A DNA stretch of 18,439 nt from an uncultured Nitrososphaerota archaeon (GTDB taxonomy: Archaea; Korarchaeota; Korarchaeia; Korarchaeales; Korarchaeaceae): positions 1 to 18,439 of the forward strand of contig CAZUBM010000030.1 in the NCBI GenBank assembly GCA_964618805.1, in the 5' to 3' direction. A program made the position numbers and the translations under genes. The notes beneath the pieces are model-generated. The model did not search any database, was not told the DNA's origin, and was given only the letters and a program-made list of their open reading frames with translations. Each line of letters begins with the position of its first letter. Positions within the stretch are counted from its first letter, which is position 1. Positions 819-17,527 of this stretch are shown one piece after another.

Positions 819-1352
819 TTGGAATATATTAAATCTGATTTATTTTTAATGGCTCTTTCAATGGTCCCATCAGCTATTGGCTCTCGAATTGTTATGGTAA
901 CAAATAGAGCTTATCCATATGTGACGGTAACGGGCGAAATAATTCAGAGGGAATTGAAGCTCGCTGAATATTCGGAGAAGACAAAGAAGGAGTTAAGAGA
1001 GCAATTGCCTTCTTATGCCCAAGTAGGAAATCCAGTTGATTTAACAGGAAGCGCAACTGCTAGGGCTTACGAGATTTCTATGAGATCTTTACTTTAGGAC
1101 TTGGGCGTTAACATTTTGATGGTTTCTTTGTCTTTCAAGACACTCCTTTAGAGGAGAAGATTGCCGATATTGTTCCGAGAATGAAAGAACACGACAAACA
1201 TATTCAAGCCTAGCTGTAGCTTCTGAAGGACTATATACTAAAAAGAAGTCTAATAGACTTGAGAGGAAAGGAATATCAGTTTTTCTTCTCCGAAAAGGGC
1301 AGTTTCAGCAGCACATGCCCTTTACTTGGCGGCAAAATTCTATAATAAGTGA
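819..1352 (+). pseudogene. Decayed C-terminal fragment of ADP-forming acetate/acyl-CoA ligase alpha subunit
   Basis: Homology-like text runs across frames: RIVMVTN...LKLAEYSEKTKKELREQLP...GNPVDLTGSA, in-frame TAG at 1095-1097, DLGVNILMVSL, shift to FQDTPLEEKI, shift to AVASEGLYT...LERKGISVF, shift to SPKRAVSAAHAL...NK-TGA (1350-1352). This matches the family's NPVD and GIPVF.SPERAV.A patterns. The N-terminal CoA-binding half is absent. Confidence 0.85.
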
Positions 1353-8129: not shown

Positions 8130-8145
8130 CTTAGATTTAAATCGA
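8130..8145 (+). promoter_or_regulatory. TATA-like box for the longin/membrane/GTPase module
   Basis: TTTAAA at 8136-8141, about 22-27 nt before ATG 8163, consistent with a leaderless archaeal transcript. Confidence 0.4.
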
Positions 8146-8162
8146 GCGACGTAGATAGTCTA

Positions 8163-9059
8163 ATGGCTGGTAGTGCCTTGCCAGTTAGAGATGTAATAAT
8201 AACAAACAGCGCTGGTATGGTCATATTAAGAAGGAGTTATGGTTCCTTACCTCCAGAGCAGGTAGAGACGACTGCTAGCATAGTAAATTTGATTACCCCT
8301 TTAATGGAGCAGATTGGTAAGACTGACGTTGGAAAGGTCATGCTAGGATCCCAGTATTTGACTTTCAAGAGAACCAAGGACCTGCTGTTCATAGTGTTTT
8401 CAGACAAGGACGTAAAGATGGAGATAGCTGAAGCAATATGTGAAGAAATCTCCAAGAAGTTCCCGCCTACTTATGAAAAGGAGCATGAAGAAGTTAGAAA
8501 GTTTAAGAAAGAGATAGACACAACGGTCTTAAGCTATATCGGTCAAAAGGAATTCATTCCCTGCTTTTTCAGCGGTACATTAGGCGTCGAATTCATTGCT
8601 TATCGAGACATCGACGGTGAATGGTCAGTTAGGGCTCAAGCCAATGAGGCAGGGGTAAGGGGGACTTGTGAAAAGCTCCACAAAGAATTAGCTCAATCTA
8701 AAAGCTTAAGGAGGAATGCCATTCTTAGAATAGAATCAAAGATAGCTCCGATCTTGGTAGCTATGGTTGGGAATGGACTTCTCTTTCTAGGGATTAATGA
8801 GGAAGAAGCCGATTTGGACATCTTATTTGATAGGATAAGAGAGCTAAGGGAAATTATTTCTCTCTCAAGGCCGAGAATTACATTACATGTGCCTGCTGAA
8901 ATGAGGGACCTGTATGAACGGACATTGAGCCTATACCTGCTGTTATATGAGGATGGAGAAAGTGTTTTGAGAAGGGATCTATCACATTTGATGCGAAGAG
9001 GCATGGGATTTGGTGAAGCTTTGAAAAAGCTTTTTGAAAAAGCCGAGTCGCAGATATAG
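8163..9059 (+). CDS. Longin-like plus roadblock/LC7-like multidomain protein (putative small-GTPase regulator)
   Basis: aa ~7-125 follow the longin b-b-a-b-b-b-a-a pattern (VIITNSAGMVILRRSY; helix; KVMLG; YLTFKR; LLFIVFSD; helix ending ISKKF; FKKEID). aa ~128-233 follow a roadblock-like pattern (GVEFIAYRDIDG...ILVAMVG.GLLFLGI....ADLDILFDRIRELREII). Fold inferred by eye and from context. Confidence 0.6.
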   Translation: MAGSALPVRDVIITNSAGMVILRRSYGSLPPEQVETTASIVNLITPLMEQIGKTDVGKVMLGSQYLTFKRTKDLLFIVFSDKDVKMEIAEAICEEISKKFPPTYEKEHEEVRKFKKEIDTTVLSYIGQKEFIPCFFSGTLGVEFIAYRDIDGEWSVRAQANEAGVRGTCEKLHKELAQSKSLRRNAILRIESKIAPILVAMVGNGLLFLGINEEEADLDILFDRIRELREIISLSRPRITLHVPAEMRDLYERTLSLYLLLYEDGESVLRRDLSHLMRRGMGFGEALKKLFEKAESQI

Positions 9060-9067
9060 GATCATTG

Positions 9068-9718
9068 ATGGAAAGACCTGCATTTACTTTGGCTGACTAT
9101 GGCCTAATGCTTACTTCAAGCCTATTTATTTCGTTTCTCACGATCACTCTTGTAGTTAGAAAGATAGTGAGGTTTCCTTACTCAGAATTTATTATTCCTC
9201 CGCTCATAATACTTGGATCCATTGTATGGTTTGCATCCTCAAAGGCTCATAGAACAAAATCTCTTGCGAGGAAGTATTGTCTCCTCTTCGGTATATATTT
9301 GCTCCTTATTGGAGCACCAAGACTTCTACTCGTCCTCAGACCTGCTTGGAGGCTATTTGCTGTTCTAAGCACTCTTGAGCTGACATCCTATGTCCCTCTG
9401 GTTCTTGGATTGGCACTAGTTCTTTCGACAAGATTCGCTTTGATGGACTTGAAGGAAATTCTGATCTTGTTGCTGGTTCTCTTAGCTATCTTATTCCTTC
9501 TTTTTGATGTAATTGTGGAGAAAGCAGCCCCACCTTTTCAAAAGGAACGAACTATCCTCGATATACCTTCCATTTTGCTACTTCACATATCATTGAACTC
9601 TCTTTGCTTGGCTCTATCGACTGTTGGGAGCTTAACTCTCCCAAAAGCTTTTCATATCAGGCAATGGGGGAGTTGGAAAAACTTCTTTTTGCAGGAGATT
9701 TGCATTAGGAGTATTTGA
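9068..9718 (+). CDS. Polytopic membrane protein (~6 TM); possibly the N-terminal half of a frameshifted fusion with the downstream GTPase
   Basis: Six hydrophobic segments in the first ~190 aa. The last ~24 codons overlap the GTPase P-loop encoded in the +1 frame. Starts 5-8 nt after the upstream stop (TTG 9065 / ATG 9068). Confidence 0.75.
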   Translation: MERPAFTLADYGLMLTSSLFISFLTITLVVRKIVRFPYSEFIIPPLIILGSIVWFASSKAHRTKSLARKYCLLFGIYLLLIGAPRLLLVLRPAWRLFAVLSTLELTSYVPLVLGLALVLSTRFALMDLKEILILLLVLLAILFLLFDVIVEKAAPPFQKERTILDIPSILLLHISLNSLCLALSTVGSLTLPKAFHIRQWGSWKNFFLQEICIRSI

Positions 9719-10136
9719 TAAGAGCTATAAGATGACCATAGGCGTTGACTTTTACTCAAATGACATGATAATAGACAGAACGCTGTATAAACTAGTTATC
9801 TGGGACATGGCAGGTCAAGAAAGATTTGGGTTTATGAGGCCAGCGTTTTACAAGGGGAGTTCTGGAGGATTCATAGCCTTTAGCTTAGTGGATGATCAAA
9901 GCCTACAGGACGTGCCAGGATGGGTAAAGGAAGCTGAAGACAATATAGGCAAGGTTCCACTTATTCTTGTGGGAACAAAGCGAGATTTAGGGGCGAATAT
10001 AAAGAGAGATCCTAGAAAACTTGTAAAGGAGCTAGGTTTTGAGGGTTACATAGAAACGAGTGCTTTAAGCGGAGAGAATATAGAAGAAGCTGTTAAACTG
10101 CTAGTAACGAGAATAACACGAGAATCTACTAAGTAG
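9645..10136 (+). CDS. Rab-like small GTPase domain (Ras superfamily) lacking its own start codon
   Basis: In the frame of ORF 9732 the upstream sequence reads KLFISGNGGVGKTSFCRRFALGVFDKSYKM (G1 at 9660-9683). Then TIGVDF (G2), KLVIWDMAGQERF (G3), FYKGS, LVGTKRD (G4), ETSAL (G5). An in-frame TAA lies at 9633-9635, with no ATG/GTG/TTG between it and the P-loop. Confidence 0.9.
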   Translation, partial: KLFISGNGGVGKTSFCRRFALGVFDKSYKMTIGVDFYSNDMIIDRTLYKLVIWDMAGQERFGFMRPAFYKGSSGGFIAFSLVDDQSLQDVPGWVKEAEDNIGKVPLILVGTKRDLGANIKRDPRKLVKELGFEGYIETSALSGENIEEAVKLLVTRITRESTK

Positions 10137-10249
10137 GCTTCGAATAAGGGAGCAAGACGATTTTACTATTTACCTCCTCAATGCCTCCTAAAATCGTTGA
10201 TTTTCACATTTAGTTCAACTTTTTAACAAATTGGTCAAGTAAAGCTGTC

Positions 10250-10265: not shown

Positions 10266-10308
10266 ACGCGACTCGTTGCAAACGAAATCCCTATCGAAGG
10301 TGTGGACA

Positions 10309-11583
10309 ATGGCAGAGGGAAGTAAACTTGGAAATACCCAAAAACTTGTTGCTATATTGTTTTTAGGACTGTTAATAGGTCTTGGAGCCGGATATGCACT
10401 ATTTTCAGGAGGTCAGCTATCAGCAGGGCCCGTAGAGTCCCCACAACCGGCTTTAGCTGAAGAGAAAGTCTATAAGATCGGCTTTACCATTCCGCTATCC
10501 GGTGAACTGTCTTCGGTCGGAAAGTTGTGGGAGAAGGCAATTTACATGGCTGTAGATGATCTAAATGAAGAAATTAAGGCGTACGGGCTAAACGTCAGGT
10601 TTGAGCTTGTTGTTCTTGATGACAAGACCAAAGAGGAGGATGCGCTGAAGAACATTCAAAGCCTGAATCAACTGGGAATCAAGGTAGTTATCGGCCCAGC
10701 TGCAAGCTCTCAGGTAAAAGCAGTCATGAACTACGCTGATTCGAATAAAATGGTGATAATCTCCCCTTCATCGACTGCTCCAACCCTTGCCATCCCCGGA
10801 GATTTTGTCTTCAGAAACACCGGATCAGATGCATTACAAGCTAAAGCTCTTGCTTCTTTAGTTTCTCACGAAGGTTTCAAGAACGTTGTGGTATTCCATA
10901 GAGATGACGAATATGGAAGAGCTTTTGCAGATTTCTTCAAGAAAGAGTTCTCTGCCATTGGGGGCAAGGCAGAATCAATGCCGTATGCAACTGGGCTTTC
11001 TGACTACGCATCTGAGGTTGCTGGATTGAGCAGCAAGGTTCAAGAACTCGGTGCAGATGCTGTTGTTCTGATTTCCTTTGACACAGACGGAGCAAACATC
11101 TTGTCTCATGCCAAGGACGATCCAGTGCTCTCTAATACAAGATGGTTCTCTAGCGAGGGAATTCATGGAGCTTCTGAATTATTGCAACCTGAAATGGCTA
11201 AATTCCTCATAAAAATAAAATTCCTTGGTACAAGACCCGTTTTCAGGGAAAATCCATTGTACAAGGAGTTTGCTGAAAGGTTCAAGAGCGAAACAGGGGA
11301 TTATCCGCCAGTTTTCACGGACAAAGTATACGATGCGGTCTTTTTGGCTGGATGGTCTATTCTTAGGGCTGGAGAGTATGATGGAGAAGCGATCAAGAAA
11401 GCGCTGCCATTAGTGGCTGAGAGATACTATGGGGTCTCTGGATGGTGCATATTGGACGAGAATGGAGACAGATTAATGCAGGATTATGCAATATGGGGCA
11501 TAGCACAGTCAGGAACTGCATATGAATTCAAGGACATCGGTTCTTGGTCTGCTGGAGCTTTAACGATGGAGGCAGGGGATTAA
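10309..11583 (+). CDS. livK: Branched-chain amino acid (HAAT family) ABC transporter substrate-binding protein with N-terminal membrane anchor
   Basis: N-terminal TM helix; YKIG..IPLSGELS..G, VIGPAASS, ISPSSTAP.L, FVFR, DDEYG, YDAV, G.SG...LDENGDR. Heads a liv-type operon. Ligand not determinable. Confidence 0.88.
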   Translation: MAEGSKLGNTQKLVAILFLGLLIGLGAGYALFSGGQLSAGPVESPQPALAEEKVYKIGFTIPLSGELSSVGKLWEKAIYMAVDDLNEEIKAYGLNVRFELVVLDDKTKEEDALKNIQSLNQLGIKVVIGPAASSQVKAVMNYADSNKMVIISPSSTAPTLAIPGDFVFRNTGSDALQAKALASLVSHEGFKNVVVFHRDDEYGRAFADFFKKEFSAIGGKAESMPYATGLSDYASEVAGLSSKVQELGADAVVLISFDTDGANILSHAKDDPVLSNTRWFSSEGIHGASELLQPEMAKFLIKIKFLGTRPVFRENPLYKEFAERFKSETGDYPPVFTDKVYDAVFLAGWSILRAGEYDGEAIKKALPLVAERYYGVSGWCILDENGDRLMQDYAIWGIAQSGTAYEFKDIGSWSAGALTMEAGD

Positions 11584-11674
11584 ATCTCTATACAAAGAGG
11601 CACATTCCCCCTCTTCTCTCAATTCTTATTTTGCTCTCATAGATCTTCAAAAACGAAAAATAAGGTGAAACTTT

Positions 11675-12622
11675 ATGGTTGGCCCAACTGAACTGTTGAA
11701 CACGGTTTGGATAGGGATAATCTACATGATCATAGCCATTCCGTTGACTTTAAGCTATAGGGTCACAAGAATCATAAACTTCGTGCACATAAACTTCATA
11801 ACAATAGGGGCCTACGTAGGGGTTATCCTCTTTTTGCAGGGAGTTAATAGCCTTCTACTCCTCCTACCAGCTTCCTTTCTTTTCGGCGCAGCAATAGCGG
11901 TTCTAAACCATTTCATAGCATTTTCTCCTTTAGAAAAGAGAGGAGCAAATCCTGTAATACTTATGATAGCCTCTCTCGGATTATGGATCTTCTACAAATA
12001 CATGATTTACGCCATACTCGACTTAGGTCAAAAAGTGTTCAGAACGAACCTATTTTCAGTAATTCCTAGGGCGACATCCCTGCCCAGCGTTTCTTTAGGG
12101 AATTATGTACTAAGTGGACACTTTTTTGCAGCACTCCTTGTAGCAGGAGTAATTATCACAATTCTCTACATATTGTTGTCAAAGACAGCCATAGGCAGAG
12201 CGATAAGGGCTGTTGCAGATAATCCAATACTTGCAGAGATCTCTGGCATACCTAGAGAGAGAGTCGTATCGATAACATGGGCTCTATGTGGCGGAATGGC
12301 TGCTATTGGTGGTCTCCTATGGGCTGTTTTTGCTATAGCAACCCCAGAAGTAGGAGATGCATTAATCCTACAGATATTTGCTGTGTCGGTTATAGGAGGA
12401 CTAGAAAGCCTACTTTGGACAGGTATTGGTGCCTTCATCATATCGGGGGCTGAAAATATATTGATGTCGATTCTAAATGCTACATTGGGTGTTCCAGTCA
12501 GTTTTAGGCCTTTCATTTCATTCTCAGCCCTTCTATTGATAATCTTGGCTAAACCTCCTTTAGGAGCAGGAGGAGGGCTTCCATACAGATTCAAGGTAGG
12601 ATTAGAGCGTTTTAAGAGGTGA
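11675..12622 (+). CDS. livH: HAAT ABC transporter permease (LivH-like)
   Basis: LTLSYRVTRIINFVH, KTAIGRAIRAVADNPILAEISGI, AVSVIGGL; multiple TM helices; SD-like AAGGTGA. Confidence 0.88.
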   Translation: MVGPTELLNTVWIGIIYMIIAIPLTLSYRVTRIINFVHINFITIGAYVGVILFLQGVNSLLLLLPASFLFGAAIAVLNHFIAFSPLEKRGANPVILMIASLGLWIFYKYMIYAILDLGQKVFRTNLFSVIPRATSLPSVSLGNYVLSGHFFAALLVAGVIITILYILLSKTAIGRAIRAVADNPILAEISGIPRERVVSITWALCGGMAAIGGLLWAVFAIATPEVGDALILQIFAVSVIGGLESLLWTGIGAFIISGAENILMSILNATLGVPVSFRPFISFSALLLIILAKPPLGAGGGLPYRFKVGLERFKR

Positions 12623-12627
12623 CTTGT

Positions 12628-13674
12628 GTGACGCTAGGATTCGATGTGTTAGGGTTTCTAATATCTTGGATTACCCTTTTTGGCACCTATGCAATAATAT
12701 CCATGTCATTAAACCTAGAAATTGGATTTACGGGAATGGCTGATTTCGGAAAAGTTGCTTTTTATGGTATAGGTGCTTACCTAGCGGCAACCATCACAGC
12801 TATCATCTTTTTAGTAGTTAATGGAATAAAGTGCCCCCTTCATTCAGTTGAGGCTATAGTTGCATTAAAGAAATGCGCATCTAAGAATCCACTGTTAAAT
12901 ATAGGGACCTTTGTACTTTGCCTCTTTGTCACATTCTTCGTAACAGGAGGCATTGGTTATTTGATCTCCTACCCTACTCTGAGAGTTGGTCCAGCTTTCC
13001 TTGGAATAACTGTCTTGAGCTTTGGAGAGTTGCTTAGGATATTCATGAGACACTTTGAGCCAACAGGTGGTACGAAGGGATTAGCAGGCATCCCCCATCC
13101 CTTAGCTTGGATTTCAAACCCAAGGCTTAGAGATGGAATATATGCGCTTGTAATACTCGCTATAATGCTGTTGACTTACTTAGTGTCGGAGAGAATCGCA
13201 AATTCGCCCTTCGGGAGGATAATGCGGACTGTTAGAGATGATGAAATTGCATCCCTCTGTCTAGGTAAGCACGTTCCTAGAATAAAAGCCTCTGTTTTCT
13301 TCCTGGCATCAGGCTTTGCTGGGATAGCTGGTGTGCTACTAGCTTATTATCTGGGTTCAGTAAACCCAGACATGTTTGTTCCTGCTGTAACCTTCAATGT
13401 ATGGGCAATGGTGATTTTCGGAGGGATGGGCAATAACAAAGGGGCAATAGTGGGTAGTGCTGTGATCACCTTTGTTGATAGGATATCTTTTGTGGTAAAC
13501 CTACTATTCCCTGAAGCCATCATAAGTCCTGATTACATAAGATGGATGATAATAGGGGTCCTAATACTGGTTACTCTTTTGTTTAAGCCTCAAGGCCTTG
13601 TGCCAGAGAGTCCAATGAAGAGCCCTGCACTCAAAATAATCTCAGATGAATTGGAAGGTGATAATGGTGCTTGA
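12628..13674 (+). CDS. livM: HAAT ABC transporter permease (LivM-like)
   Basis: SLNLEIGFTGMADFGKVAFYGIGAY, TGGTKGLAGIP, NSPFGRIMRTVRDDE, GGMGN..GA. GTG 12628 has SD GAGGTGA; GTG 12619 is an alternative start. Confidence 0.88.
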   Translation: MTLGFDVLGFLISWITLFGTYAIISMSLNLEIGFTGMADFGKVAFYGIGAYLAATITAIIFLVVNGIKCPLHSVEAIVALKKCASKNPLLNIGTFVLCLFVTFFVTGGIGYLISYPTLRVGPAFLGITVLSFGELLRIFMRHFEPTGGTKGLAGIPHPLAWISNPRLRDGIYALVILAIMLLTYLVSERIANSPFGRIMRTVRDDEIASLCLGKHVPRIKASVFFLASGFAGIAGVLLAYYLGSVNPDMFVPAVTFNVWAMVIFGGMGNNKGAIVGSAVITFVDRISFVVNLLFPEAIISPDYIRWMIIGVLILVTLLFKPQGLVPESPMKSPALKIISDELEGDNGA

Positions 13675-14419
13675 AGTCGTTGACTTAGCAAAATATTTTG
13701 GAGGAATAAAGGCATTAGATGGAGTATCTCTGGAAGTTAAGAGAGGATCAATAGTGGGACTTATAGGCCCCAATGGTTCCGGGAAAACAACTCTCTTTAA
13801 CGTCGTAACAGGTTTTTATGAGTCCACAAGGGGAGAAGTGTGGTTTAATGGTGAGAGAATAGATGGCTTGAACCCAAATGAGATCTACTTAAAGGGGCTC
13901 GTTAGGACCTTTCAAATTCCGAGGCTTTTTCACTCTCTATCTGTTCTTGAGAACGTACTGGTAACTCCTCCAAATCAAATTGGAGAAAGACCCTTAAATG
14001 CCCTTTTTAAAAAGAAGTGGACCGATCAAGAGGTAAATCTAGCAAAGCAAGCGGTTAACATCCTTAAAATGCTTGGCTTGGCCCCCTATGCTAATGTTAA
14101 GGTTTCCGATCTATCTGCAGCTCATATAAAACTCCTTGAGACCGCAAGAGGTCTGATGGGGGGAGCAAAGCTTTTGTTACTTGATGAGCCCACAGCTGGA
14201 GTCGCTTATACAACTGCAAAGGAACTGTTCGACTTCATAGTTGAATTGAGAGACGAAAAAGGCTTGACCTTCTTCATCATAGAACATAGATTAGAGGTCT
14301 TGATGGATTACGTGGAATATGTTTACGTCTTACATAACGGAAAGCTTCTATCAGAGGGAAGACCAGAGGAAGTTGTTGAGGATAGGAAGGTCATAGAGGC
14401 ATACATAGGTGAGGGGTGA
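13664..14419 (+). CDS. livG: HAAT ABC transporter ATP-binding protein (LivG-like)
   Basis: FGGIKALDGVS, Walker A GPNGSGKTT, GLVRTFQ, LLLLDEPTAG, IEH, VIEAYIG. Signature motif is degenerate (LSAAH). Confidence 0.92.
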   Translation: MVLEVVDLAKYFGGIKALDGVSLEVKRGSIVGLIGPNGSGKTTLFNVVTGFYESTRGEVWFNGERIDGLNPNEIYLKGLVRTFQIPRLFHSLSVLENVLVTPPNQIGERPLNALFKKKWTDQEVNLAKQAVNILKMLGLAPYANVKVSDLSAAHIKLLETARGLMGGAKLLLLDEPTAGVAYTTAKELFDFIVELRDEKGLTFFIIEHRLEVLMDYVEYVYVLHNGKLLSEGRPEEVVEDRKVIEAYIGEG

Positions 14420-15132
14420 TGGACGCGATTCTAAAGATAGATGAACTTTACGCAGGTTATGGCAAGATGGAGGTGCTACACGGGATTAACATGGAAGTTA
14501 GAAGGGAAGAGATCGTCGCCTTACTAGGACCGAACGGAGCTGGAAAGACAACTCTACTTAATAGCGTTTTTGGCATTGCTAGGGTTTTCAAGGGCAATGT
14601 AATGTTTGCTGGAGAGAACATAATAGGAAAGAGTCCTTATAGACTAGTTAGAATGGGATTAGGATACTCTCCTCAGCTCAACAACATATTTCCAAACCTT
14701 TCTGTCATAGAAAATCTCCTGATGGGCGCCTTCATAAGAAGAAAGGATCTTAGTGTTGAGGAGAGCATAGATGAGATATTTCAGCTCTTTCCAGAGATCG
14801 AAAGGAGAAAGAATCAGAGGGCTAAGACTCTTAGTGGAGGAGAAAGGCAGATGCTTGCGGTAGCCAGGGCTCTAATGGCTAAGCCAAGGCTGATAATGCT
14901 TGATGAGCCTACTGCAGGATTGGCTCCCAAAGCCGCTACAACCCTAATAAAAAAGATTTCTGAGATGCGAGAGATGGGAATAACTGTATTGCTAGTCGAA
15001 CAAAACATCAAAAGGGCTCTTGAAATTGCCGATAGAGCCTATGTACTCTCTAGTGGAGAAATAGTTAGGGCAGCCGAGTCAGAAGAGCTCCTTAAAGAGG
15101 ATATCGAAAAGCTCTTCTTCAAACAAAGCTAG
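14416..15132 (+). CDS. livF: HAAT ABC transporter ATP-binding protein (LivF-like)
   Basis: AGYG, GPNGAGKTT, LSGGERQMLAVARALM, LDEPTAGLAP, LLVEQN. Start is GTG 14416 or ATG 14419. Confidence 0.93.
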   Translation: MMDAILKIDELYAGYGKMEVLHGINMEVRREEIVALLGPNGAGKTTLLNSVFGIARVFKGNVMFAGENIIGKSPYRLVRMGLGYSPQLNNIFPNLSVIENLLMGAFIRRKDLSVEESIDEIFQLFPEIERRKNQRAKTLSGGERQMLAVARALMAKPRLIMLDEPTAGLAPKAATTLIKKISEMREMGITVLLVEQNIKRALEIADRAYVLSSGEIVRAAESEELLKEDIEKLFFKQS

Positions 15133-15168
15133 CATTCCCTTAAGTTTTTTAACAAAAGTGTTAGAGGG
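15133..15168. terminator. Short convergent intergenic region with T-tract (probable terminator between livF and glyA)
   Basis: T6 at 15145-15150 after livF; an A-rich stretch gives a short T-run on the minus strand; imperfect flanking inverted repeat CCCT-TAA...TTAGAGGG. Confidence 0.35.
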
Positions 15169-16503
15169 CTACGTTCTAAGTACTATGTGCTTATAAGCTT
15201 CATTCATGCTTTCAAAGCAGTAATGTATGTGCTTAAACCTTTCCCTAAGCCTTTTGACGTCTTTTGCCACGTTCTTTGGATCCTCCTTATCTAATAGGAC
15301 TCTCTTATAGAACTTGGCCATCTCCTCCATTTCTCCCTCCTTCATGCCAAGTCTCGTGATTTCTAACGTGCCTATTCTAATCCCTCCTGGATCTCTGAAG
15401 TTTCTCCCTCTCTTTATATCCCAAGGAAGAAGATTCCTATTTACTATTATGTTGGCTTCTTCTAAGATCTTCTCGGCCCATAAACCTCCTCCTATATCGG
15501 CTACATCAACAAGAACCTGATGACACTCTGTGAATCCTCTATCTGCACCAAGCACATTCAAACCCAAGTCATACATTGCTTGAGCAAGGGCCTTAGCGTT
15601 CTTTATGATCTGATTAGCGTACTCCTTTCCAAACTCCTTAAGTTCAGCCAAGGCTATTGCTAGGGCTGCAACTGCTCCTAAATGATGGTTGCTTAATAAG
15701 CCTGGGAAACATGCTTGTTTTATCAGCTCGAATTTTTCATCATCATTTGTAACGATCATGCCGTGCTGGGGTCCTGGTAACGTCTTATGAGTGCTCATTG
15801 TCATAGTATCTGCTCCCTCTCTAAGAGGATCCTGAAATCTTCCAGCACCGATTAATCCAGCAAGATGAGCTGCATCATAATTTACGATAGCTCCCATAGA
15901 ATGTGCAACATCCGCTATCTCTTTTACAGGTTGAGGAAAAAGAATTTCGGAAGCTCCAAACATTATGAGCTTTGGCTTATACTTTTCCATTCTCCTAATC
16001 GTCTTGTCAACGTCTATGTTCATTTCTTCATCATTGAAAGCTATGTACTTGACATCAAGGCCATGCACTGCTCCAGCCGTACCTCCTATTCTAGTTCCCT
16101 TTGATCCATAGAGGGGGCCCATGCTGATGTGCCCGCCTTTAGTTATAGGAAGGGCCATCATCACATCTCCTGGTTTTGTAAAAGCGGTATATACAGCAAG
16201 ATTTGCGATTACTCCACTTATTGGTCTTACGTCGGCATGTTTAGCCCTGTAGATTTCCTTTGCAAGCTCCATAGCGATCATTTCTACCTGATCTATGAAC
16301 TTGCAGCCAGCATAAACACGTTCCCCTACCCACCCTTCAGCATATCTGTGCTCGAAGTCACAAATTAGTGCTTCCCTAACAGCGTAGCTAGTCACGTTTT
16401 CACTAGCTATCATAGGAAGCGAGCTGTCAAACCACTTTTGATGCTCTTCTATAAGATGAAAGACCTTATTGTAGGCTTCCCTTGCTTCCACTATCTCACC
16501 CAT
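15169..16503 (-). CDS. glyA: Serine hydroxymethyltransferase, archaeal type
   Basis: MIASENVTS, RYAEG....RVYAG, RPISG..AN, GGHIS, YDAAH, PLP-Lys motif STHKTLPGPQ, SNHH, GIRIGT.E.TR.G. ATG at 16503 preferred. Confidence 0.95.
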   Translation of the reverse strand: MGEIVEAREAYNKVFHLIEEHQKWFDSSLPMIASENVTSYAVREALICDFEHRYAEGWVGERVYAGCKFIDQVEMIAMELAKEIYRAKHADVRPISGVIANLAVYTAFTKPGDVMMALPITKGGHISMGPLYGSKGTRIGGTAGAVHGLDVKYIAFNDEEMNIDVDKTIRRMEKYKPKLIMFGASEILFPQPVKEIADVAHSMGAIVNYDAAHLAGLIGAGRFQDPLREGADTMTMSTHKTLPGPQHGMIVTNDDEKFELIKQACFPGLLSNHHLGAVAALAIALAELKEFGKEYANQIIKNAKALAQAMYDLGLNVLGADRGFTECHQVLVDVADIGGGLWAEKILEEANIIVNRNLLPWDIKRGRNFRDPGGIRIGTLEITRLGMKEGEMEEMAKFYKRVLLDKEDPKNVAKDVKRLRERFKHIHYCFESMNEAYKHIVLRT

Positions 16504-16553
16504 GTTCGATGTTGTAATGAAAAATAAAATTGAGACCTTCAACTGACATTGAG

Positions 16554-16982
16554 ATGGGAGAAGAGAAAGAAGCTTATGTCACTTGCCAGAGGGATTGCCC
16601 TGATGCCTATGAACACATCCTATACAAGTTCGCTCCAACCCAAGCGAAACAAGGAGAAGTTTACACCCCAAGGGAAGCAATCCAGCTTTCAGTTGAAATT
16701 CTAGATCCGAAACCGGGGCAAAGCGTTTACGATCCCGCATGTGGCTTTGGAGGAATGCTAATAGTATCTTACAAGTACGTTAGGGAGAAATATGGCAATG
16801 GCAAAGCTGAAAAGCTCCTATTGTACGGTCAGGGGTACAATTCAGATATTTACGGACTTTGTAAATTGAATCTAATAGCCCACGGAATTACAGATGCTTT
16901 CATGGAATTCGGTGACAGCCTACTATATCCAAGGTTTGCAGAAGGAGGGAAATTAAAACAATTCAATTTAGTGATAATTTGA
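16554..16982 (+). pseudogene. hsdM: Truncated type I restriction-modification M subunit (HsdM / N-6 DNA methylase) fragment with a foreign N-terminus
   Basis: DAYE.IL.KFA...AK.GEVYTPRE, VYDPACG.GGML, LYGQ, LCKLNLIAHG, GDSL.YP. Stops at FNLVII*, just where the catalytic NPP(F/W) should follow. The N-terminal HsdM domain is missing and no hsdS/hsdR is nearby. Confidence 0.88.
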
Positions 16983-17064
16983 GAACTCAAAAATAATATC
17001 GATAGTGAGGGCGAAGAGCGAAGCGACGCAAAGTTCCGAACCCCACCATTTATTTTCTTTTACT

Positions 17065-17202
17065 CTAATATAATTTGTATGTAGCCAATACGACAAGGAA
17101 AATAATAGCCAATCCTGCAGAAATTTCTGGGTCAAGCATTGCTGAAAGCAACACGAAGAAAGCTGCTAAGATGGCAATTATTCCCTCTGTTTTATTATTC
17201 AT
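17065..17202 (-). CDS. Small membrane protein, 45 aa, helical hairpin (not in ORF track)
   Basis: Manual translation MNNKTEGIIAILAAFFVLLSAMLDPEISAGLAIIFLVVLATYKLY*: two hydrophobic helices around a DP turn. More protein-like than the overlapping + strand ORF 17075-17278. Confidence 0.65.
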   Translation of the reverse strand: MNNKTEGIIAILAAFFVLLSAMLDPEISAGLAIIFLVVLATYKLY

Positions 17203-17264
17203 ATCGATAGTTAGTCATTACTTCTCTTTATATCTTTTTATTTCAGGTCTCCCGAAGCCGATTG

Positions 17265-17278
17265 CTAGCGCGCGCTAG
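17265..17278. repeat. Perfect 14-bp palindrome CTAGCGCGCGCTAG
   Basis: Self-complementary, GC-rich, set in an AT-rich divergent intergenic region next to TTTAATAAAT. Confidence 0.8.
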
Positions 17279-17317
17279 TTTAATAAATAATAAAAACATA
17301 AACTGGCGGGAAATGGG

Positions 17318-17506
17318 ATGGAAAAAATTAAGATAACTATTGGAATAGTTTCGGCAATAGTAACAATTTTTGTTATCGCTTATCTTATAACATTGCCAAG
17401 ATCAGTTTTAGAGGAATTCAATTGGGTTTCGATCGTTGCGCTGCTTTTCCTATATTGGATAATTTTCGTTAATTGGTATTCTAAACATAAAAGAGAAAGC
17501 CCTTAA
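17318..17506 (+). CDS. Small hypothetical membrane protein (62 aa, 2 TM)
   Basis: Two hydrophobic helices, basic C-terminus, ATG preceded by G-rich sequence. Confidence 0.6.
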   Translation: MEKIKITIGIVSAIVTIFVIAYLITLPRSVLEEFNWVSIVALLFLYWIIFVNWYSKHKRESP

Positions 17507-17527
17507 GTATTGGAAGGAAATTAGGAA

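Follow-up and report, generated by a model that had tools for sequence, protein, structure and literature searches.

It is proposed that positions 9065-10136 of the window (the whole 18,439-nt stretch analysed, which is the entire contig C30 of the uncultured korarchaeal genome G000; 2.18 Mb, 62 contigs, 93.7% complete) very probably carry the scar left by the recent loss of about 0.6 kb from a conserved longin-like/membrane/Rab-like GTPase gene module, and not a hidden frameshifted fusion gene. Measured on the ortholog from G002, a genome of the same genus, the event would have removed from the membrane-protein gene its last 74 codons with transmembrane segments (TM) 7 and 8, then a spacer of about 160 bp, and from the GTPase gene the first ~71 codons, which comprise the start codon, a four-helix N-terminal domain (N-domain) and the start of strand beta1. 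The two ends appear to have been joined out of frame at the 4-nt microhomology AAAG (9644-9647), presumably by microhomology-mediated illegitimate recombination or by replication slippage. The membrane open reading frame (ORF) would in this way have come to enter GTPase DNA in the wrong frame for 23 codons up to a stop at 9716-9718; the G domain, intact in sequence, would have been left with no start codon ahead of its P-loop, and what remains would be a P-loop-less ORF of 134 amino acids (aa) from the ATG at 9732.

The arrangement of reading frames at the junction can be followed codon by codon. In the GTPase frame, that of ATG 9732, a TAA at 9633-9635 is followed by CTC TCC CAA AAG CTT TTC ATA TCA, and none of these eight sense codons (9636-9659) is ATG, GTG or TTG. 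The next codons, GGC AAT GGG GGA GTT GGA AAA ACT (9660-9683), encode GNGGVGKT, the G1 P-loop, from which the frame stays free of stops through to 10136. The translation of 9636-10136 matches the Pfam family Ras (PF00071) with E=2e-37 and 128.7 bits (cut-off 21.6) over positions 1-161 of the 162 of the profile, and a match to the full profile indicates that in-frame coding upstream of ATG 9732 is real and not due to chance. The membrane ORF (9065..9718, 217 aa) overlaps the P-loop stretch in a different frame, and the longest GTPase ORF with a standard start is 9732..10136 (134 aa); a translatable GTPase requires a start codon 5' of G1, and the first standard start, at 9732, lies 3' of it. The sequence confirms in these respects the initial annotation of the stretch, which had pointed out that the GTPase ORF at 9732 lacks G1, that G1 is encoded upstream in the same frame where it overlaps the tail of the membrane gene, and that the TAA at 9633-9635 closes this frame with no standard start before the P-loop.

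Comparison with the G002 locus defines both the junction and the missing segment. In blastn, window 8136-9647 aligns with the G002 ortholog to the end of the ...LPK codons of the membrane gene, window 9644 onward aligns with the G002 GTPase gene from its KLF codons, and the two high-scoring segment pairs (HSPs) overlap at 9644-9647; the interval of 9636-9653, within which the initial annotation had placed any junction, is hereby narrowed to these four positions. In codon register, the K codon at window 9644-9646 corresponds to K193 of the G002 membrane protein, and the K codon at 9645-9647 to K72 of the G002 GTPase counted from its ATG. Between these two points contig C36 of G002 holds 602 bp with no counterpart in the window; the 3' end of the membrane gene with its stop accounts for 224 nt of these, the spacer for 162 nt and the 5' end of the GTPase gene for 216 nt. 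Measured between the HSP ends only, the length is 599 bp. As 602 is not divisible by three (602 mod 3 = 2), the two stumps are out of frame. The protein comparison leads to the same point: the window membrane protein tracks all three homologs (261, 267 and 253 aa) to GSLTLPK, the homologs run ~70 residues further, and the tail of the window ORF, AFHIRQWGSWKNFFLQEICIRSI, aligns with none of the three, the same bases encoding the G domain when read in the other frame. By hydropathy the G002 ortholog has about eight hydrophobic segments, of which the window keeps segments 1-6. The locus shows what marks a deletion scar, namely collinear flanks with an internal segment missing and an intact allele in a close relative, and scars of this kind are ordinary and well documented.

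Relatives carry the genes in intact form. The G-domain translation was searched in 41 genomes (G000 and 40 relatives) and was matched at E<=1e-20 in 11, all from one family (genera g1, g2 and g4); the membrane protein is present in five of the 41, all from genus g1. On contig C36 of G002 the three genes are separate, co-oriented ORFs: one of 294 aa for the longin-like protein, one of 267 aa for the membrane protein and one of 238 aa (235 aa from ATG) for the GTPase, which has ~70 residues before the G domain and is 85% identical to the window over that domain. G001, G004 and G003, and also contig C3 of G002, have a paralogous set of three genes, with products of 304, 250-253 and 233-235 aa. 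The GTPase frame was extracted from 10 loci, a contig-end fragment (L011) and three distant GTPases with 36-37% identity (L012, L014 and L015) being left out. All nine loci from other genomes (five from genus g1, four from genus g2) have an N-terminal extension in the same open frame; eight of these frames are uncut and measure 230-252 aa, and the ninth (G003) is cut by the contig end. In alignment A3 every non-G000 sequence (18/18) has at least 45 residues ahead of beta1. A search for metagenome contigs with the locus returned 67 loci, the only close ones being L026 and L027, in which a full 267-aa membrane gene and a full GTPase gene stand separately, ~165 bp apart; these two are G002-like, 83-84% identical, and not independent of G002.

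The closest relative of the remnant is the protein P0121 (234 aa, with an intact N-domain), the sole other member of the 90%-identity cluster of the 134-aa ORF. Its G domain shares 96% identity with that of the window and does not differ from it in the last ~120 residues; the contig encoding P0121 is not among the 67 metagenome loci found. The P-loop of P0121 reads GVGRT, with Arg for Lys at G-domain residue 16, whereas GVGKT is found in the window and in the rest of the family. As the source contig is 1,469 bp long, the Arg may reflect either an inactivating change that is real or an error of sequencing. At the nine loci in other genomes, on L026 and L027 and in P0121 the frame break is absent, the GTPase gene being uninterrupted and separately started, and neither a fusion nor a frame-broken form was seen in any relative examined. 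Of the three options left by the initial annotation, a deletion that joined two separate genes is thus the one borne out, by the separate genes of G002, the 602 bp missing from the window and the intact allele in P0121 and in the public run X3; two independent genes with extra sequence between them, the arrangement that it had named as speaking against a fusion or a frameshift, are what the relatives have.

Three public runs contain the stretch (X1, X2 and X3); the search for runs listed no RNA data for it. The X1 contig (13,308 bp, with no difference from the window in the stretch compared) and the X2 contig (718 bp, covering 9494-10211) both bridge the junction, and neither has an indel there, the A and T runs included. 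X1 and X2 are two runs of one sample, X1 being the probable source of the window; the junction is therefore reproducible at contig level and confirmed in one sample. The 134-aa protein call is recorded in four source collections, on a 108-kb contig. From X3, which belongs to a different study, comes a 151-bp contig of depth 2 that matches 9644-9774 with four differing letters. Before 9644 it has 20 letters unlike the window, which encode LKGVRR(L), the end of the P0121 N-domain. This departure from the window, together with the N-domain end of P0121, places the right breakpoint at 9643/9644 or, given the microhomology, up to 9647/9648.

The state of the remnants points to a young event. The G domain in the window has no changes at family-invariant positions. 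Synonymous sites between G000 and G002 are saturated (pS 0.75), which makes the ratio of nonsynonymous to synonymous substitution rates (dN/dS) unusable, and lineage-specific amino-acid changes were counted instead. For the G domain, window versus G002, these are 3 vs 6, 4 vs 7, 3 vs 5, 2 vs 7 and 6 vs 4 with five outgroups; for the longin-like gene they are 23 vs 23, and for the retained membrane part 22 vs 14 (p=0.24), with no significant excess. The lack of a substitution excess, together with the intact near-identical allele, indicates that the deletion is recent; it would postdate the divergence from the P0121-bearing strain. Judging from the sequence, both genes are now probably non-functional.

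A second deletion is present in the same genome. The only other Ras-like match of G000, on contig C34, is 68% identical, belongs to the paralogous clade and lacks the two upstream genes; the 298-aa longin-like gene and the membrane gene of the window are each single-copy in G000. Compared with contig C3 of G002, ~2.24 kb is replaced on C34 by ~30 bp (L023 about 9264-9293), so that the longin-like gene (304 aa) and the membrane gene are gone, along with the first ~36 GTPase codons and the 5' end of the divergent neighbour. The GTPase ORF that is left there (197 aa, L002 1486-2079, minus strand) has three changes at family-invariant positions, namely G33S and D35G, which turn TIGVDF of switch I into TISVGF, and P92L. 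With the deletion in the window and that on C34, both modules are damaged in G000; both are intact in G002. The idea that the N-terminal extension of the C34 paralog derives from the C-terminus of the 298-aa gene was considered and dropped in view of the intact relatives.

The initial annotation had described the P-loop as reachable only through a +1 frame change from the membrane gene, which holds as a description of the frames but not as a mechanism, since the break is a scar. Among its explanations was programmed +1 frameshifting. Such a translational bypass, programmed or merely tolerated at a low level, would use slippage at AAA-G or TTT-C to yield a truncated membrane protein plus a ~356-aa fusion of six TM segments and the G domain, and we regard it as extremely unlikely. 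Both of the same-residue +1 sites that had been noted do sit in the 0-frame of the membrane ORF (AAA-G to AAG, TTT-C to TTC), and the G domain downstream of them has no disabling mutation, but the frame break is not conserved (0/9 loci in other genomes; none in L026, L027 or P0121), a near-identical relative is intact, and what look like slip sites are no evolved signal but the microhomology of the deletion together with the first codons of beta1. Moreover, the N-domain, present in 18/18 non-G000 members, would be missing from the fusion, in which beta1 would follow a TM segment directly; among the hits that match the N-domain, whether near-length ones or those in the best 150, no fused form occurs. 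In programmed +1 frameshifting, as in prfB (RF2) and antizyme, relatives share the sites, and a stimulator accompanies them (a stop or a rare codon in frame, an rRNA-pairing element upstream); in the window no such element was seen, no search aimed at one having been made. The window resembles these systems in its overlapping frames and in a site where re-pairing of the P-site tRNA in +1 would leave the amino acid unchanged; unlike theirs, its break was made by a deletion, and no relative examined has it. It is scarcely to be expected that occasional +1 slippage at CCA-AAA-G or GCT-TTT-C yields a little of a membrane-anchored 6-TM/Rab-like fusion, or, in a less exotic variant, that the lineage is losing both of its Ras-like GTPase modules, the only ones it has, through separate deletions (that in the window and the ~2.2 kb on C34) because the module has become dispensable or harmful there. 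Were the slippage reading true, a newborn accidental fusion protein would be seen at its origin, and a 1-nt change could later fix it under selection.

An artefact, either a mis-join of two intact genes or an in-frame fusion with a 1-nt error in an A or T run, is likewise very improbable. Some room is left for it by the origin of the window in a metagenome-assembled genome (62 contigs) and by its inspection at the level of contigs and not of reads; however, separate assemblies of two runs agree on the junction without indels, and the same 134-aa call in four source collections, on a 108-kb contig, speaks for the sequence as given. De Bruijn assemblers join on k-mers much longer than 4 nt, and as the 4-nt overlap is far below the k-mers used by assemblers, a mis-join would probably have no mechanism. 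An in-frame fusion is found in no relative examined, and the fusion gene with a 1-nt error, another of the options first put forward, is supported neither by this nor by the X1 and X2 contigs, which have no indel at the A and T runs. A similarly small chance is given to a free G domain without the N-domain, made from a non-canonical start within 9636-9659 (e.g. CTC 9636, CTT 9648 or ATA 9654). The fully intact G-domain sequence would suit it, as would the C34 copy, which likewise lacks most of the N-domain yet keeps an ATG four codons before the conserved KLF. Against it, the eight codons available in the window include no ATG, GTG or TTG. A product started there would have at most 8 residues before the P-loop glycine, its frame lies inside another ORF, and a recent deletion explains the intact sequence without selection.

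Several points count against the deletion scar, or limit how much can be read from it. The evidence consists of contigs and not raw reads, so that neither the share of cells with the deletion nor an intact minor allele can be read from it. X1 and X2 represent one sample, and the junction is confirmed in that single sample. The near-identical intact allele rests on a 1,469-bp contig (P0121, as protein only) and on the 151-bp, depth-2 contig from X3. The 163 codons without a degenerative mutation would equally fit a G domain that is still somehow used. Finally, the parental sequence is reconstructed from relatives, and the deleted length and the microhomology should be taken as estimates.

The coordinates of the features at the locus are collected in Table 1.

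Table 1. Features of the damaged module in the window (positions of the 18,439-nt stretch).
Feature	Position	Strand	Remarks
Retained 5' part of the membrane-protein gene	9065..9646	+	194 codons from TTG 9065, 193 from ATG 9068; collinear with the 267-aa G002 ortholog to ...GSLTLPK
Incidental out-of-frame stop TAA in the GTPase frame	9633..9635	+	In DNA derived from the membrane gene, left of the junction; not a gene end
Probable deletion junction with 4-nt microhomology AAAG	9644..9647	.	Present in both parental sequences, on the left that of the membrane gene and on the right that of the GTPase gene
Wrong-frame tail of the membrane ORF	9647..9718	+	23 codons and TGA; GTPase DNA
Remnant of the Rab-like GTPase gene	9645..10136	+	Full G domain, 163 codons and stop; lacks a start codon and the ~71-residue N-terminal four-helix domain
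G1 / P-loop GNGGVGKT	9660..9683	+	5' of every standard start codon in the frame
Longest remaining standard-start GTPase ORF, 134 aa	9732..10136	+	Lacks beta1, P-loop and helix 1; called as protein P0010 in the public collections
Longin-like first gene of the module, 298 aa, intact	8163..9059	+	ORF for a cytosolic protein; 74% identity to the 294-aa G002 ortholog

The Ras superfamily is defined by the motifs G1 GxxxxGK[ST], G2 (a Thr in switch I), G3 DxxGQ and G4 NKxD. The remnant carries in frame G1 GNGGVGKT, TIGVDF as switch I (G2) and WDMAGQE as G3. Its G4 is GTKRDL, that is TKxD and not NKxD; the same variant is common to all 11 aligned family members, which makes it a family trait and not a sign of decay. 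Proteins of the Rab family proper have a C-terminal cysteine prenylation motif; such a motif is missing at the end of the window protein (...TRITRESTK) and of every family member in A3. Going by the structural model the GTPase is Rab-like in fold, but it is not a Rab. The AlphaFold2 (AF2) model of P0121 has a predicted local distance difference test score (pLDDT) of 90.4 and a predicted template modelling score (pTM) of 0.87, with four helices (8-62) packed on the G domain and beta1 at 67-77, which indicates that the deletion takes away a folded domain and part of beta1. The best matches of the P0121 G domain in the Protein Data Bank (PDB) are Rab1b, Rab32 and Rab8a, with target-normalised template modelling scores of 0.86-0.92 and 28-34% identity. 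The family shares with these eukaryotic Rabs the G-domain fold (in the P0121 model), the TIGVDF switch I and a WDxAGQE G3; unlike them, it lacks a C-terminal Cys motif, has a TKxD G4 and, in the intact members, carries an extra N-terminal helical domain. The GTPase with the N-domain accounts for ~10 protein clusters, and among the best 150 of 1.84 billion representatives the N-domain is matched only by P0003, P0135, P0150 and P0268. The prokaryotic Rup family provides a broader comparison for a Rab-like GTPase (PMC4316618), and Rab-like small GTPases occur in Asgard archaea along with longin and Roadblock proteins (PMC10933270).

The gene order longin-like/membrane/GTPase is the same in G002, G001, G004 and G003. 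In the window the order and the first gene are present, and the second and third genes exist only as truncated remnants; in contrast to the intact korarchaeal operon, the membrane gene is cut after TM6 and the GTPase is decapitated. The idea that the membrane gene is an insertion flanked by a 10-nt repeat was likewise dropped in view of the intact relatives. The AF2 model of the 298-aa first protein (pLDDT 78) consists of two beta-beta-alpha-beta-beta-beta-alpha units and C-terminal helices, and is longin/Roadblock-like. Its best Foldseek matches are subunits of the tri-longin guanine nucleotide exchange factors for Rabs (Rab-GEFs) Mon1-Ccz1, CPLANE and BLOC-3, followed by zeta-COP, sigma-adaptins, Ragulator and Roadblock proteins, with E-values down to 6e-6 and low global template modelling scores. 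This protein has no Pfam family, Longin being hit only at E=0.052, below threshold, and for the membrane protein no family was found in Pfam or NCBIfam; each of the two forms three clusters, and the source names on a G002-like protein cluster are 'Thermoproteota archaeon' and 'Candidatus Korarchaeota archaeon'. The folds and the gene order suggest that in the intact module a longin-type regulator and the membrane protein likely control or anchor a Rab-like switch. A complex prediction for the 298-aa protein and P0121 gave a score of 0.01 against a mark of 0.32, a value that speaks neither for nor against binding. The loci of genus g2 (L007-L010) are arranged differently, a membrane protein of 203-230 aa coming first, followed by a longin-like protein with a single domain (138-173 aa; Fuz_longin_1 match at E=0.0015, below cut-off) and by the N-extended GTPase, implying that the two-domain regulator and the regulator-membrane-GTPase order are specific to genus g1. 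Our literature search found nothing joining tri-longin proteins with archaea.

Other parts of the window show features of their own. A 92-aa ORF at 819-1097 (+) matches Ligase_CoA_2 at positions 2-66 of 162 only, and no ORF of at least 90 aa lies in 1098-2000; a 150-aa ORF at 16530-16982 (+) matches N6_Mtase at positions 8-130 of 311 only, and no ORF of at least 90 aa lies in 16983-17527. These two partial ORFs fit the earlier remark that the window holds other decayed genes. The stretch 10340-15183 has no blastn counterpart on contig C36 of G002, where ~6.1 kb of other sequence stands between the same syntenic flanks; in this stretch a periplasmic-binding-protein gene at 10276-11583 (Peripla_BP_6 / ANF_receptor) is followed by four further ORFs.

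A short microhomology is typical of illegitimate recombination or replication slippage. The locus agrees with the deletion pseudogenes and junction scars of prokaryotes in its collinear flanks with a missing segment, its short microhomology, its out-of-frame stumps and its start-less downstream gene, and differs from them in nothing essential; what is particular here is that an intact allele lies in the same 90%-identity cluster and that the second module copy is also deleted. The presence of an intact allele within the same 90%-identity cluster suggests that the event is unusually fresh. For annotation, the ORFs 9065-9718 and 9732-10136 are best marked as remnants of two genes (truncated/pseudogene), and not as a 217-aa membrane protein and a 134-aa 'GTPase'; the stretch is no candidate for recoding. 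An uncultured hot-vent archaeon has deletions in both copies of a rare module of which its congener G002 keeps both, which indicates that the module is dispensable in nature. The intact and the broken strains together form a natural knock-out pair for a rare archaeal GTPase module.

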